Below are positions 1,042-8,242 of a DNA stretch of 32,000 nucleotides, piece after piece. This stretch comes from Candidatus Heimdallarchaeota archaeon. Its GTDB lineage: Archaea; Asgardarchaeota; Heimdallarchaeia; Heimdallarchaeales; Kariarchaeaceae. A program made the translations under genes and the position numbers. The DNA is taken from assembly GCA_030149205.1 (NCBI GenBank), contig JASBSB010000004.1:120001-152000 (forward strand). The letters are read 5' to 3'. The notes under the pieces were generated by a model. It did not search any database, had not been told where the DNA came from, and saw only the letters and a list, made by a program, of their open reading frames with translations. How positions within the stretch are numbered: position 1 is the first letter of the stretch; the number at the start of each line of letters is the position of its first letter.

Positions 1042-1890
1042 TTACTCATCCAAGTTAACTAGAAGATTACCATTTTTGTCAAAGAAACGATTCTTATAAC
1101 GCCAAGCCGTTAAAAATCTAAATGTGGCTTTTTTCTGTGTTAGAAATTTTATATACTTATTTGAACCGCTCACTGACTTCATTCTTGGAACTAGAAAGTC
1201 AGCTATAGTACTTGGTTTTTCTGCTAATATATTAAAAATTTTTTTTGTTCTGTTATTTGATCCAGTTAGCAATAAATCAGTTAGCACCATTCCAGGACTG
1301 GCTGTGTGAACTCCAACTCCTGAATTTTTTAGTTCTAGGGTTAATCCTTTAGCAATCATTGGTATTGCTCGTTTTGTGGTCGAATACGGTAAGTATCCAC
1401 GTGTAACTCGCCCATTGCTCCCTAGTCCGTCGATATTGAATATTTTTCCAGAATTTTGGTTGATTAATATAGGTAGTACCGCTCTAGTACAATATAAGGT
1501 TCCTAGCAAATTTGTTTCAACTATTCTTCTAATGGTTTCAATATTATAGTTTGAAAAATCAACATGATCTTCCGAATCAATACCTGCATTGTTTATCCAA
1601 ATATCTATAGCTCCGAGAACCTCTTTTGAATAGGTTACCAAAGAATCAACTGCTTCATATTTAGTAACATCTGCTTGGAATGTGTAAAGTTGATTCGTAT
1701 CCCTAACTGAGTTTTTTGCTTTTGATAGGTTTTCAAGACTCCTTGAAGAAATAACAACAGAATCCCCTAATGAAATAAATTTTTTTGCGAGTGCTAATCC
1801 TACCCCTTTTGACCCACCAGTTATAACCACATTGACCATAATTAGAGGAAATAGAACACCCTTGATAAAGTGCAAGAAATCAGAAATCAA
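1042..1890 (-). CDS. Short-chain dehydrogenase/reductase resembling the NOL/NYC1 (chlorophyll(ide) b reductase) subfamily
   Basis: TGGSKGVG Rossmann motif, WINNAG, catalytic YSTTK (YxxxK), plus IFNIDGLGSNGR, SPGMVLTDLL, NILAE and YIKFLT segments recalled from plant NOL/NYC1. TTG start overlaps the cheD stop; alternative ATG at 1839. Confidence 0.8.
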   Translation of the reverse strand: MISDFLHFIKGVLFPLIMVNVVITGGSKGVGLALAKKFISLGDSVVISSRSLENLSKAKNSVRDTNQLYTFQADVTKYEAVDSLVTYSKEVLGAIDIWINNAGIDSEDHVDFSNYNIETIRRIVETNLLGTLYCTRAVLPILINQNSGKIFNIDGLGSNGRVTRGYLPYSTTKRAIPMIAKGLTLELKNSGVGVHTASPGMVLTDLLLTGSNNRTKKIFNILAEKPSTIADFLVPRMKSVSGSNKYIKFLTQKKATFRFLTAWRYKNRFFDKNGNLLVNLDE

Positions 1891-2393
1891 ATATTGTAGG
1901 TTTTTTTATTCATAACTTGTTTAATTGTCAATAATCCCGATTCTAAGTTAAAAATAATGGTTCTCCCAAAATTTTCCCCTACATCTTTAGCCACAACTGG
2001 TATGTTGTTTTCAGTTAACAATCTCAATACAGCCTCAATATTTCTTTGACCAACATCCATTATGCTTAGGTTCGAAACATCAAACATTCTTGCTCCTCCT
2101 GCAATTTTTGCAATTAGGTTCGACCTTTGTGCTCCTCTCGCCACTGTCATCTTTATTGCTTCAGGTATTGCAGTTGTTGCAAATTTTCCTGGGAGACTAT
2201 TTGATGTTCCTGTGATTTCAGGTAAAAGAATATGGGCAAGAGCCCCAATTTTAGTTGATTGATCATAGATAACCACACCTACACAACTTCCTAATGCTAA
2301 CGCTTGGAGAACATCTGGTGATTTACTCATAACTATCTCTCCAATTTTAGCAGTGTGGGTTGTTGACATTTGTTTAGGGTTCCTCCATTCCAA
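1887..2393 (-). CDS. cheD: Chemoreceptor glutamine deamidase CheD
   Basis: ALGSCVGVVIYD, AHILLP, KFATTAI, AKIAGGARMF, VGQRN and DVGENFGRTI motifs; directly downstream of cheC. Confidence 0.95.
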   Translation of the reverse strand: MEWRNPKQMSTTHTAKIGEIVMSKSPDVLQALALGSCVGVVIYDQSTKIGALAHILLPEITGTSNSLPGKFATTAIPEAIKMTVARGAQRSNLIAKIAGGARMFDVSNLSIMDVGQRNIEAVLRLLTENNIPVVAKDVGENFGRTIIFNLESGLLTIKQVMNKKTYNI

Positions 2394-3027
2394 ATAGATT
2401 AGACATCAAAGATTTCATCGCCATCTTATCAGGTAATAAGAGTATATCTCCTTTTATCGTCTCCTCATCAGTAAACACATCAACTTCAACAAGAAGGAAC
2501 ATATTAGAATCATCAAGGCTATGGGTTATTAGTTCATCTGTTAATGCCCCTACCATATCGATAGCCAATATTGGGGGACTTGGAAACCACTTTGTCTCAG
2601 CAAAGCTATTTATAGCAGAAATTGTTTGCAACAATAAAATATTACCTGTTTCCTTGATTATAGAGGAATTAACCTCATCGAGTTTTTCCAAAGACTCTAC
2701 AGTTGATTTTGTTGTTAATATGTTCAATAAGGATCTAACTGAAAGAGCATTAAATATGAGCAGCATATTCAACATCCCATTGCTGTCCTCTGCTGTTTCT
2801 TGTAATATCCCAGCCACTATCTCTTCAGAACTTTCAGCCAATGTGTCAGCCACATCTGCAACCGAAACAAATCTTACTCTTGGAATACTCATTTCGACTT
2901 TTCGGTTAAGAAGTTGAGAGAGAGCGGTTGCTGCATGTCCAACACCGATATTGCTGATTTCTTGTAATATCTCAATTTTTGGGTTAAATTGAGCATAGAA
3001 ATCATTATCAGGTAAGTCAAAACCCAT
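2374..3027 (-). CDS. cheC: CheY-P phosphatase CheC
   Basis: Two ExxN active-site repeats (QEISNIGVGHAATALSQLL...SIP and KETGNILL...SPP); overlaps cheD. Confidence 0.93.
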   Translation of the reverse strand: MGFDLPDNDFYAQFNPKIEILQEISNIGVGHAATALSQLLNRKVEMSIPRVRFVSVADVADTLAESSEEIVAGILQETAEDSNGMLNMLLIFNALSVRSLLNILTTKSTVESLEKLDEVNSSIIKETGNILLLQTISAINSFAETKWFPSPPILAIDMVGALTDELITHSLDDSNMFLLVEVDVFTDEETIKGDILLLPDKMAMKSLMSNLFGMEEP

Positions 3028-4703: not shown

Positions 4704-5510
4704 TTATGAACCATCCATAGCACTTTGAATTTTATCGACAAGTTCTTCTTTTTTGCTACGAGTGCTTACTCCATCAATTCCCATTTCAATTGCTATCCTG
4801 AGGAGTTCAGCTTTGGTCAAGCTGGCTAAGTCTAAGGGACTATCACCAAATTGATCATCAGATGTCACCTTTCTCATTCCCTGGTCACTGACTATGTAAT
4901 CATCGTCCTCCAAATCATCATCAGAAAAGTCAACACGGGAATCTGAGATTTGTTGGTCAGTTAAAACAACTTCATCCGAATCTCCACCCTGATCAATTGG
5001 ACCAGAGACCTTTTCTCGAACAGTCGCAAGCTTTTCTAATTCTTTTATATCAAACTGTGAGAGCACATTATCAAGATTAAGTATGATTACGATTCCCAGA
5101 TCTGTTTGAACAACACCTTCCATAAAGTTTGATTTTTCAGTCCCTGAAATCAAGGAAATTGAGCTTTGAATTTGAGTGCTATCAACTGTGATAACTGTCT
5201 CGACATAATCAACTAACAATCCAATTACAGTTTTACCTATGTTAATAATCAATACATAGTTTCTATCTTCCTCATCATAATCACGCTGTGGTTTCGTGGA
5301 TTCTTCAATCAAAAGTCTCCTTTTAAGATCAATTGTCGTTACAATCTGACCTCGAAAGTTGATAACACCAGCCACATATTTTGGAGATTGAGGGATTGGT
5401 GTGATAGAATCAGGGACAAAAACCTCTTTGATTTTATGAACATCTATTGCAAAATATTCATGATTGAGTAAGAACGCAACTAATTTTTGTTGTGAAATTT
5501 GTTTACTCAT
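4704..5510 (-). CDS. cheW: CheW with acidic linker and C-terminal Rho-N/HeH-like domain
   Basis: N-terminal CheW (FAIDVHKIKEV, ITPIPQSPKYVAGVINFRGQIVTTIDL, GLLVDYV); Asp-rich linker; last 43 aa LDLASLTKAELLRIAIEMGIDGVSTRSKKEELVDKIQSA. Confidence 0.92.
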   Translation of the reverse strand: MSKQISQQKLVAFLLNHEYFAIDVHKIKEVFVPDSITPIPQSPKYVAGVINFRGQIVTTIDLKRRLLIEESTKPQRDYDEEDRNYVLIINIGKTVIGLLVDYVETVITVDSTQIQSSISLISGTEKSNFMEGVVQTDLGIVIILNLDNVLSQFDIKELEKLATVREKVSGPIDQGGDSDEVVLTDQQISDSRVDFSDDDLEDDDYIVSDQGMRKVTSDDQFGDSPLDLASLTKAELLRIAIEMGIDGVSTRSKKEELVDKIQSAMDGS

Positions 5511-5621: not shown

Positions 5622-6197
5622 TTAGAACAACAATAATACCGTGAAATAGACAAGTAAAGAGGTACCTACCAGGTCTCCCACAGTTGTTGTAATTGGTGGG
5701 AGTTTGGAATCTGGGTCAAGTCCCCGTGTGAAAATAATTGAACTAAGAAGTGATGCAATAATACTTATTATGAATGTTGACAACACACCCGCTCCAACTA
5801 CAACGACAAGGAGTTTAAACAAGTCCACTGATGAATGGTTTATCAAAATGGCAACCAGATAGGCAACTAGTCCAGCAGCTAAAAAAGAAGTAAATGAAAC
5901 AGCTAATATAGCAGTTAGATTAGTCAAATAAAGAGAGAATGGTCTAAACCTATTGTCCAATTTTCCTGTGTAGAAAAGAGTTGATAACCTTGAACCTAAA
6001 ACATCTGAAAGGTCTCCTGCTATATTAATAAAAGCAGGTACCAGGATTACAATGACAGGTACATTCTGAATTATATGTGTCAAGTTTTGATCAAAGATGA
6101 TTCCTGTAAACGCAGAAAATATCATTACCCCATAGAGAGTTAATAGACTCTGTCTGACTATTTCTCTGACAGTAAATCTGTTTTTTCTTTGAGGCAT
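5622..6197 (-). CDS. MgtE/SLC41-like integral membrane domain protein (COG1824-like), copy B
   Basis: About 5 TM; GDLSDVLGSRLSTLFYTG and LDPDSKLPPITTTVGDLVG motifs. Confidence 0.82.
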   Translation of the reverse strand: MPQRKNRFTVREIVRQSLLTLYGVMIFSAFTGIIFDQNLTHIIQNVPVIVILVPAFINIAGDLSDVLGSRLSTLFYTGKLDNRFRPFSLYLTNLTAILAVSFTSFLAAGLVAYLVAILINHSSVDLFKLLVVVVGAGVLSTFIISIIASLLSSIIFTRGLDPDSKLPPITTTVGDLVGTSLLVYFTVLLLF

Positions 6198-6264
6198 AAA
6201 CCACTAAAGATTACACTCAATTTAAATTTATATTCATGTTCCAACTCATAAATACGGATATAAA

Positions 6265-6981
6265 CTAATAAAAAATAGGAAGTAGTTTGTCGAGGTAAAT
6301 AACCATCTCTAGAACCAATCCTAAGGAGGCTACAGTTAAAATATCTCCCAATGTAGCGATTACAGGGATAGTAACATTATCTGGATCTAAATTGTATTTG
6401 GTTGCTAATAATACAACAAAGATAGCTAATAATGTTAGTACTGTCCCAACTGTCAAAGCGATAGTTCCAACTACTGTAAAATATCCCAACCAAGTCATAT
6501 GGTTAATCCCTAATAAATACGCAACAAAGAATCCCAAAGTTGATAATCCTAAGGATGATAACATGTTTAATAATATTGTAGCGATTACATCTGTTCTTAC
6601 CTCCTCATTGAATCCCAAATCCCAGTTAACCAAACCTAGGTGTACACTTGTCCCTAATCTTTGGGCAAGATTTGATACTATATTTCCTCGACTCTCCATA
6701 ATTCCTGGAATCACCAAAAGAACCCCCGGAATTAATAAATAATACTTTTCGAGTGTGATTAATAAAAAACCAACATAAATCTCCGCAAATATTGTTATAA
6801 TTGTTATTGGGCTAGTTTGTTTATAGATTTTGATAAAAAGCTCAATAAATTCGTTGTTCATAATTTGAACATAAAAGGTTTTGATGAGTGTACCAAATGT
6901 TACCATTGGGGTCTTAATTGAATCAAAAAGCTTTGTCTTATAATTTCTTAAAGAATTCCTAAAACTCCCAAAAATCTTCAT
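6265..6981 (-). CDS. MgtE/SLC41-like integral membrane domain protein (COG1824-like), copy A
   Basis: About 5 TM; GNIVSNLAQRLGTSVHLG and LDPDNVTIPVIATLGDILT motifs. Start may be ATG 6861. Confidence 0.85.
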   Translation of the reverse strand: MKIFGSFRNSLRNYKTKLFDSIKTPMVTFGTLIKTFYVQIMNNEFIELFIKIYKQTSPITIITIFAEIYVGFLLITLEKYYLLIPGVLLVIPGIMESRGNIVSNLAQRLGTSVHLGLVNWDLGFNEEVRTDVIATILLNMLSSLGLSTLGFFVAYLLGINHMTWLGYFTVVGTIALTVGTVLTLLAIFVVLLATKYNLDPDNVTIPVIATLGDILTVASLGLVLEMVIYLDKLLPIFY

Positions 6982-7129: not shown

Positions 7130-8242
7130 GTGGCTATAACCGTTTTAATAGCTGATGATTCACCTTTTATTATTAAATTATTAGAAAAGGTAATTTCAAC
7201 AGATTCTAATCTAAAAATTATTGGAGTCGCTAAAAACGGTACAGAATGTATTACAAAGGTCATAACACAAAAACCAAGAGTAGTCATATTAGATATTGTC
7301 CTTCCAGACCTGAGTGGGTTAAATATTGTTAACCAAATAATGAGAGCAAGACCAACACCAGTAATTTTGTTCTCTTCGTTAACACATTCTACAGTTCGTC
7401 AAAATTCCTTAGTTTTTGATTATGGAATGGTTGATTTTATTAATAAACCAACAGCAGAATTAGGTGACCCATATTTAAATCTCAGAAAGGTTTTGATTCC
7501 AAAAATCTACATTTTGTCCAATTTGAAAGTACATAAATTCTATAATCTGATCAAACAGGTTAATGCAGAATTTATACAATCTACCATAGATCAACTTAAA
7601 GACGAGACAACTGATCCAAAAAATGCTGATATTACTGGTTCTTCTACTCCGATAGTTGTTCATTCTAGTTTTAGAAAACTCATAATAATTGGTGCAAGCA
7701 CAGGTGGACCTCATCTTTTAACAGAATTAATCAGGAGAATCCCCAAAAATTTACCTCCAATAATAATAGTCCAACACATGCCGGAAGGTTTCATAGAATC
7801 TTTTGCCACTCGCTTGGATCAACATGCGAATGTGAAAGTCTACGCAGCAGAAGATGGAATGGAACTTAAAGGTTCGATGGTTGTGGTCGCAAGGGGAGGA
7901 AAACATCTTAAGGTCATATCCAAAGGTGGCAAACCAGCAGTTGTCTTTGATAACTCTCCAATGGTTAATTTTGTGAGACCTTCAGTCGACGTAACAATCA
8001 AATCAGCGGTAAATATTTACGGTGGAAGGATTGTAACAGTTATTCTTACTGGAATGGGTAAGGATGGTTTAGCGGGGAGTATTCTTGTCAAAAAACAAGG
8101 GGGAAAGGTGTTAGCTCTAAATGAAAGAGATTCCGTGATTTTTGGGATGAATAAAGCTGTCATCGAGGCGGGAGTTAGTGATGGAGTTTATTCAAAAAAT
8201 GAGATAATTAATGAGATGGTGAAGGCTGTTCAAACCCTTTAG
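7130..8242 (+). CDS. cheB: Chemotaxis methylesterase CheB (receiver + methylesterase)
   Basis: Receiver domain (ADDS, LDIVLP, KP); catalytic triad motifs GASTGGP, VQHMP, LTGMGKDG; RPSVD. Confidence 0.96.
   Translation: MAITVLIADDSPFIIKLLEKVISTDSNLKIIGVAKNGTECITKVITQKPRVVILDIVLPDLSGLNIVNQIMRARPTPVILFSSLTHSTVRQNSLVFDYGMVDFINKPTAELGDPYLNLRKVLIPKIYILSNLKVHKFYNLIKQVNAEFIQSTIDQLKDETTDPKNADITGSSTPIVVHSSFRKLIIIGASTGGPHLLTELIRRIPKNLPPIIIVQHMPEGFIESFATRLDQHANVKVYAAEDGMELKGSMVVVARGGKHLKVISKGGKPAVVFDNSPMVNFVRPSVDVTIKSAVNIYGGRIVTVILTGMGKDGLAGSILVKKQGGKVLALNERDSVIFGMNKAVIEAGVSDGVYSKNEIINEMVKAVQTL

Follow-up and report, generated by a model that had tools for sequence, protein, structure and literature searches.

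What does a CheW protein do with about 105 residues beyond the end of the canonical fold? CheW is usually treated as a bare adaptor, and this question was raised by a gene in a stretch of 32,000 nucleotides (the window) from a Candidatus Heimdallarchaeota archaeon of the family Kariarchaeaceae (GCA_030149205.1, contig JASBSB010000004.1, positions 120,001 to 152,000), whose genome (G000) was 93.5% complete. The gene, cheW-HeH, lies in a che cluster and encodes a protein, P0001, in which the CheW domain is extended by an acidic leash and a predicted folded domain of the helix-extended loop-helix (HeH) type. The extension is genuine, runs through the lineage and has not been described before, and its range is limited to two Heimdall families. 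By analogy with ParP and FrzCD, the tail is probably an autonomous module for tethering or localising the chemosensory array.

Architecture and predicted fold of the extended CheW

The Pfam match of the CheW domain covered profile positions 2-136 of 138 of PF01584 and scored 106.7 bits against a cut-off of 23.5. When residues 5-161 were compared by phmmer with solved CheW proteins (2qdl, 2ho9, 8c5v, 1k0s, 4jpb, 3ja6), E-values from 5e-18 to 9e-12 were obtained. The NCBIfam CheW equivalog was matched over the same residues with 64 bits where its equivalog cut-off is 260, a shortfall to be expected when a CheW is archaeal and distant. In the AlphaFold2 model calculated on the orthologue alignment, the CheW domain was beta-rich, with a predicted local distance difference test score (pLDDT) of 80-92 over residues 7-144; a helix was predicted at residues 155-168, and the alignment of P0001 to E. 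coli CheW reached residue 161. Since the solved chains (139-167 aa) matched residues 5-161 only, canonical CheW ends near residue 165 of P0001 and the remainder is extra. Just 9 residues stand ahead of the CheW domain, so there was no room for an additional N-terminal domain, and no Response_reg match was found in P0001 in the Pfam scan. A sequencing artefact, a frameshift or a gene-fusion error was ruled out, because more than 20 orthologues from independent assemblies were colinear with the open reading frame. P0001 thus shared with canonical CheW (E. coli 2ho9; T. maritima 1k0s/3ur1) the CheW domain, a che cluster with cheA, cheB, cheC, cheD and cheY, and a genome with MCP genes, six in this case, but canonical CheW stops where the linker of P0001 begins, and P0001 adds the leash and the HeH module.

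The region behind the CheW domain was resolved into two parts. Residues 170-224 of the AlphaFold2 model were disordered (pLDDT 35-47), and the C-terminal end was confident again (pLDDT 81-90). The linker carried a net charge of -12 over residues 170-217 and contained the acidic motif DFSDDDLEDDDY (residues 194-205, window 4896-4931), which was conserved in the family as DFSxDDLxD. The module was composed of a short helix within FGxSPLDL, helix 1 (TKAELLRIAIEM), a 10-residue extended loop and helix 2 (KKEELVDKIQSAM). When the tail was modelled in isolation, the same arrangement was predicted with a pLDDT of 87, namely a helical turn at positions 11-13 (the lead-in PLDL), helices at 16-26 and 37-49 and a 10-residue loop between them.

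Profile searches placed the module among Rho_N domains. In P0001, Pfam Rho_N (PF07498) was matched at residues 227-261 (window 4728-4832) with an E-value of 5e-4 and 20.3 bits, under the cut-off of 24.9, and the tail scanned alone reached 24.5 bits. The profile was matched by 20 of 21 orthologous tails at E <= 0.1, with a best value of 1.2e-6. The cut-off was exceeded by the tail of P0036, the single protein scanned from a second family (f4, see below), with 36.3 bits, and by that of P0104, with 29.6 bits. SAP (PF02037) was matched weakly by 4 of the 21 tails (best E 0.0011, under the gathering score), and P0104 scored 22.8 bits against the SAP cut-off of 23.9. Because the SAP matches fell under the cut-off, the tail was filed in the wider HeH fold group and not as a SAP domain.

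Structure comparison pointed in the same direction. VIA-align of the tail model against 48,161 chains returned SAP domains with Z of 6.3 (1zrj) and 6.2, Rho (1a62) with 6.1 and LEM (7ndy) with 5.2. In Foldseek, rank 1 was Rho (6xas, E 0.73) and the best TM-score by query for a Rho chain was 0.68 (1pv4_E), followed by the SAP-like domain of MANF/CDNF, the SAP domain of Tho1 and the LEM domain of emerin; T4 endonuclease VII appeared in both lists. For a domain of about 40 residues, a Z near 6 or a Foldseek E near 1 is not significant alone, and small helical domains can attain such values by chance, which weighs against the assignment, although the ranking was coherent. A shape search of the ESM Atlas retrieved Rho_N mini-proteins, Rho itself, bL21 proteins with a Rho_N domain and viral DNA methyltransferases carrying Rho_N. 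With the N-terminal bundle of Rho (PF07498; 1a62, 1pv4) and with SAP, LEM and HeH domains, the module shared the pattern L..L(T/S)K.EL..IA.E.GI....s..K.eLi..I. and the order of helix, extended loop and helix. In Rho, however, the bundle is N-terminal and packed on the OB fold that holds the RNA site, whereas the module of P0001 would be free at the end of a leash.

A profile made from 21 tails was searched against 1.84 billion representative proteins, and 137 proteins were retrieved at E <= 1e-3 (best 1e-8), most of them of Rho_N type and 40-120 aa long. In 107 of the 158 matched stretches, the end was no more than 8 residues away from the C-terminus, and several relatives contained a tandem pair of HeH repeats, seen as two stretches per protein. 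No usable match was obtained with this profile among PDB sequences (just E 0.58 and 1.3) or in the ESM Atlas feature search with residues 195-268. On this evidence the tail is very probably a functional, folded HeH-type module of CheW. An isolated tail of 50 residues is small, predicted to fold well and easily tested.

The preliminary description of this locus, made from the sequence, had claimed a CheW, an acidic linker and a C-terminal module in one open reading frame, and the Pfam CheW match, the predicted disorder of the linker and the Rho_N match bore this out. Its HeH or Rho-N-like pattern was likewise supported by the Rho_N matches of the orthologous tails, by the predicted fold and by the top structural ranks of SAP, Rho and LEM. 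The tail sequence which it quoted corresponded to residues 228-264 (window 4719-4829). The module that it placed from residue 226 stood, but this start did not, as the conserved unit begins about 5 residues earlier, at FGxSPLDL (221-228), which also occurs on the CheY fusion described below.

Conservation, distribution and a copy on CheY

Homologues of P0001 from independent assemblies (n = 22) were colinear to the last residues, and full-length orthologues showed 48-59% identity. The mean pairwise identity was highest in the HeH core (0.62), followed by the CheW domain (0.56) and the linker (0.24). From the CheW domain to the tail, the helix of residues 153-169 included, 57-114 aa were counted in the Kariarchaeaceae orthologues and 17 aa in the outlier P0022. 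Judged from these alignments, a two-fold variation in linker length together with a core that is the most conserved segment would be as expected for a leash with a functional knob. Invariant or near-invariant residues of the tail were L226, D227, L228, L231, K233, E235, L236, I239, A240 and K254.

The tail was kept in orthologues: it was carried by every CheW orthologue with an intact, assembled 3' end. Across 41 genomes of the same order, there was one tail in each genome with a CheW orthologue, always on CheW. In the survey of CheW in 400 Asgard species genomes, matches to the tail profile were confined to CheW in the families f1 (7 of 11 genomes) and f4 (2 of 3); the remaining f4 genome had a contig that stopped about 110 nt past the CheW-domain match. 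The fusion was found in just 10 of 80 CheA-bearing Asgard genomes. A genome search detected neither a second tail copy nor any other Rho_N domain in the source genome.

The f4 proteins (P0036, P0175, P0176) were 220-226 aa long, and their CheW domains were 33-42% identical to that of P0001. In 2 of the 3 f4 genomes, the P0036-type protein was the sole match to the CheW query, and the f4 genomes contained CheA orthologues at 43-45% identity and 5-7 MCP matches each. A third subgroup was represented by P0104, from an unclassified metagenome contig, where the gene was followed by a cheY. Because the tail was common to two families with such divergent CheW domains and to the P0104 subgroup, the sequences indicate that the fusion is old within a clade made up of two families from the same order. 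Through a long stretch of evolution, the leash with its knob has been retained on the main CheW in both Heimdall families, and a copy of the knob has also reached a CheY.

This copy was found in a lineage of relatives in which a 193-aa CheY paralogue (P0061) ended in the same module, including the lead-in FGxxPLDL, joined by a short linker. On contigs L022-L025, the gene order was cheW-HeH (P0170), cheY-HeH (P0061) and a plain cheY. The tails of P0061 and P0170 were just 44% identical, and therefore the transfer onto CheY was not recent. The presence of the same module and lead-in on CheY, behind a short linker, indicates that the module behaves as a portable unit which would carry its own address, that is, an autonomous targeting function. 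An HeH domain serving as the output or address of a receiver domain has likewise not been described. The cheY-HeH lineage comprised 19 metagenomic contigs, and L022-L025 came from four runs with adjacent ERR accession numbers.

In the literature searched, no paper was found to mention a CheW that carries Rho_N, SAP or HeH. The statement of the preliminary description that no CheW of this architecture had been described held for that literature, but precomputed Pfam annotation labels the f4 relatives CheW + Rho_N, so that databases already contain the architecture without any discussion of it. The published census of CheW architectures analysed 16 of 111 Pfam architectures and set the rare ones aside (bioRxiv 10.1101/2022.05.07.491035).

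Array display and the ligand of the module

From the architecture, predicted fold, conservation, portability and distribution given above, we infer how the module could be displayed on the array, what it could tether and which ligand it could bind. As part of the scaffold protein of the main chemosensory pathway, the CheW domain would sit in the baseplate of a membrane receptor array, between the receptor tips and CheA-P5, with its C-terminus on the side of the baseplate that faces away from the membrane, an orientation suggested by CheV, in which a receiver follows the CheW domain. From there a disordered acidic leash of 50-110 residues would run to the folded HeH knob. Since an array holds many copies of CheW, its cytoplasmic face would display a dense brush of HeH domains, whose contacts, each weak but many in number, could together anchor the array on a scaffold in the cytoplasm. 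A CheY paralogue would be held on this scaffold by the same module in one lineage. If the tail does act in this way, array placement would have been solved independently a third time, next to ParC/ParP and FrzCD or PpfA, and in archaea for the first time by a part of CheW itself.

Two known systems serve as models. ParP of Vibrio consists of a CheW-like AIF domain, a long proline-rich linker and a ParC-interaction domain, and couples array formation to localisation (PMC5706961). P0001 resembles it in having a CheW-type array-integrating domain, a flexible linker and a small placement domain, and this likeness is a functional analogy only: in ParP the anchor-binding domain is N-terminal and unrelated to HeH, the linker is rich in proline instead of acidic residues, and ParC is known as the partner. 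In FrzCD of Myxococcus xanthus, an appended tail binds the nucleoid directly and without sequence specificity, and signalling complexes assemble there (PMC5716589). As a core chemosensory component with an appended tail, FrzCD is a direct precedent for the nucleoid tether that the preliminary description proposed, but it is a cytoplasmic receptor whose tail is N-terminal, positive and unstructured, whereas the module of P0001 is predicted to be folded and is slightly acidic, and the receptors are membrane-bound. With CheV, P0001 shares an accessory domain on the C-terminus of CheW, which would hang below the array baseplate; in CheV this is a receiver and here a 40-residue HeH domain, and the linker of P0001 is far longer.

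For the ligand, nucleic acid, either nucleoid DNA or RNA, is tentatively regarded as the single most likely class, and such binding could help to position or partition the array. The domain associations of the module favour it, as endonuclease VII, Arc-like repressors, Rho, bL21 and DNA methylases all carry related domains. In PHROG, the last 45 positions of the endonuclease VII family were matched by the tail with an E-value of 8e-7 (6.7e-8 for the f4 tail), and two Arc-like repressor families were matched as well. Four orthologues (P0003, P0004, P0005, P0023) had a bipartite linker, in which an acidic block (net -11 to -12) was followed, directly before the HeH module, by a basic block of 40-53 residues (net +3 to +8) that was rich in Lys, Pro, Thr and Ala and resembled histone H1-type tails. 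Proteins of this kind were encoded in the same-genus genomes G001-G003, and P0001 was without the basic insert. Within the module, K233 and K254 were invariant and R/K251 was conserved, at the N-termini of the two helices, the sites at which SAP-type domains contact phosphate.

Several observations weigh against nucleic acid as the ligand and against a nucleoid tether. The net charge of the HeH core was -1 to -2 in P0001 and ranged from -5 to +3 in orthologues; P0001 as a whole had a net charge of -22 and a pI of 4.37, compared with a median pI of 6.4 for the long open reading frames of the genome. Among the closest relatives of the tail, 116 of 158 stretches were negative and the median net charge was -2, a figure that is biased because they were retrieved with an acidic profile. 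DNA-binding eukaryotic SAP and LEM-like domains are basic, whereas the module of P0001 is neutral to acidic. In the f4 proteins, the linker was rich in Ser, Thr, Pro and Ala and neither acidic nor basic. Protein-binding HeH or SAP-like domains were among the structural matches (MANF/CDNF, emerin LEM, SLX4 SAP), whose respective partners are BiP, BAF and MUS81. Furthermore, with membrane-bound receptors a nucleoid scaffold is not needed for clusters, unlike in the case of cytoplasmic FrzCD. Cytoplasmic arrays that need a nucleoid scaffold were ruled out for this organism, in which 6 of 6 MCPs had predicted membrane helices.

These properties lend some weight to the idea that the HeH tail is a protein-docking arm, a possible though doubtful explanation, whose target might be CheC, CheD, CheB, CheR, a CheA domain, a positioning ATPase, a cytoskeletal anchor or a chaperone. 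A receptor pentapeptide, NWETF, tethers CheR and CheB and offers a model for such an arm. An acidic, highly conserved module, with D227, E235 and E242 on its surface, suits a specific protein interface better than the binding of a polyanion, and a CheY paralogue with the same tail would bring two pathway proteins to one partner. The protein-binding MANF/CDNF, LEM and SLX4 domains among the structural matches agree with docking as well, and ParP is a precedent (PMC5706961). Nevertheless, no candidate partner was identified, the genome held no second copy of the module, the other fusion partners of the module were mostly nucleic-acid-related, and besides cheY no neighbour gene of cheW-HeH was conserved in both families. 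Complex prediction of residues 186-268 with CheA and the adjacent CheY (three alignments) gave a score of 0.02 (mark 0.32), which speaks neither for nor against docking.

A more specific form of nucleic acid binding, in which an HeH domain carried on CheW, from the fold group of the eukaryotic LEM, SAP and HeH chromatin tethers, would fasten the arrays of these eukaryote-related archaea directly to chromatin or nucleoid, and in some lineages CheY-HeH would bring the phosphorylation signal to DNA, is considered unlikely. If true, a chromatin-tied array would give a pathway that lacks the CheF-archaellum route a nucleoid-directed output or a partition mechanism.

It is slightly less probable still that HeH modules bind each other, so that cross-linked CheW would stabilise the array lattice and, with CheY-HeH, form a split CheV. 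The genes of CheW-HeH and CheY-HeH lie side by side in L022, several relatives have tandem HeH repeats, and CheV shows that a receiver at the C-terminus of CheW works (architectures reviewed in bioRxiv 10.1101/2022.05.07.491035). In most genomes, however, the copy on CheW was alone, and in the source genome a homotypic partner encoded elsewhere was not supported, since no second copy was found. Solved HeH, SAP and LEM domains are, as far as is known, monomeric, which also argues against self-association. A tail without a specific ligand, which would keep the array at a distance from nucleoid or ribosomes as an entropic or electrostatic bristle, serve as a solubility aid or be a neutral, lineage-specific add-on, is very improbable: the strongly acidic linker of the Kariarchaeaceae (net -8 to -13) would suit it, yet no folded end is required in a bristle, conservation peaks in the HeH core, this core was kept across CheW domains just 33% identical while the linker shifted from acidic to Ser/Thr/Pro-rich, and the module was copied onto CheY with a short linker.

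The module recurred outside chemosensory proteins. It formed the end of phage tail tube and baseplate proteins (P0073, P0152) and the C-terminus of phage endonuclease VII and Arc-like repressor families (PHROGs 3281, 390, 1539 and 2724); because it recurs on several phage protein families, it appears to be highly mobile among them. In bL21 with Rho_N (Atlas) and in the phage tail tube and baseplate proteins, as in P0001, a protein of a multi-copy assembly carries a flexible linker and a C-terminal HeH domain. CheW-HeH is thus a well-defined case for the broader question of small Rho_N/HeH domains on the flexible tails of large assemblies such as ribosomes and phage tails.

The che cluster and the chemosensory pathway

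The coordinates of the features are collected in Table 1. The order of the cluster was cheD, cheC, an MFS transporter gene (opposite strand), cheY, cheW-HeH, the genes of two MgtE-like membrane proteins, cheB, a second cheY and cheA. The cheW-cheY pair was conserved in the relatives L002-L008, L022 and L051 by tblastn synteny.

Table 1. Positions of cheW-HeH, its protein segments, the surrounding che genes and the related locus with cheY-HeH (positions in the window unless a contig is named).
Feature	Position	Strand	Basis or remark
cheW-HeH gene, P0001, 268 aa	4704..5510	(-)	Single open reading frame, ATG start, TAA stop; stop codon included in span
CheW domain, residues 10-152	5055..5483	(-)	Pfam PF01584, E 9.8e-31, 106.7 bits
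C-terminal helix closing the canonical CheW fold, residues 153-169 (LEKLAxxRE)	5004..5054	(-)	Conserved in orthologues
Disordered acidic linker, residues 170-220	4851..5003	(-)	AlphaFold2 pLDDT 35-47; mean pairwise identity 0.24
HeH (Rho_N-type) module, residues 221-266	4713..4850	(-)	Pfam Rho_N, AlphaFold2, structure searches
cheY, 122 aa	4331..4699	(-)	Pfam Response_reg, E 9.5e-26; ATG 4 nt past cheW stop
cheA, P1-P2-P3-P4-P5	8736..10667	(-)	Pfam Hpt, P2, H-kinase_dim, HATPase_c, CheW
cheB	7130..8242	(+)	Pfam Response_reg and CheB_methylest
Second cheY-like receiver, 131 aa	8239..8634	(-)	Pfam Response_reg, E 3.9e-28
cheC	2374-3027	(-)	Pfam CheC, E 9e-12
cheD	1887-2393	(-)	Pfam CheD, E 1.7e-31
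cheY-HeH, P0061, 193 aa	L022:6874-7455		Ends in the same module incl. FGxxPLDL lead-in (tail-profile search)
cheW-HeH, P0170, 272 aa	L022:5973-6791		Adjoins cheY-HeH
Plain cheY	L022:7546-7968		After cheY-HeH

Each of the six MCPs of the source genome had 2-4 predicted N-terminal membrane helices (C1:85599-86075, C8:163451-163840, C7:35252-35674, C7:249300-249692, C9:26996-27358 and C7:56688-57128). Five of the six were short, with frames of 345-404 aa, and lacked an extracellular ligand-binding domain of notable size; in this they resemble transducers that serve membrane-embedded partners, as Htr with rhodopsins, or membrane-intrinsic sensors.

The output of the pathway was searched for by Pfam. 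No CheF match was found in the 41 genomes of the order, and CheF was absent from 399 of the 400 Asgard genomes, in 80 of which CheA (H-kinase_dim) was present. Neither ArlD nor ArlE was found in the source genome and its order, and an archaellin over the cut-off was detected only in G008. These results suggested that either the chemosensory output of Asgard archaea does not take the classical route from CheY through CheF to the archaellum, or their CheF has diverged too far for Pfam to recognise. The idea that the tail goes together with a lost CheF-archaellum output was rejected, because CheF was missing phylum-wide and its absence is not a correlate of the tail.

A second chemosensory cluster was present on an 11.9-kb contig of the source genome (G000:C10:2150-9559); it comprised a CheW frame of 153 aa, plain and without an HeH tail, and frames of 599-638 aa that resembled CheA. 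The two MgtE-family membrane proteins between cheW and cheB (191 and 238 aa, 5622-6981 on the minus strand, the strand of cheW) were without the cytoplasmic MgtE N-terminal and CBS domains, and their placement was not kept in L022. In the f4 family, cheW-HeH lay outside any che operon. In L010 it came after a gene (L010:2098-3189, minus strand) for a 363-aa protein with a C-terminal tail rich in Lys, Glu and Ser, and in L026 and L028 it stood beside genes for proteins of 814-878 aa with no family assignment or a weak PCI match. Genes of small Ras/Arf-like GTPases were located nearby.

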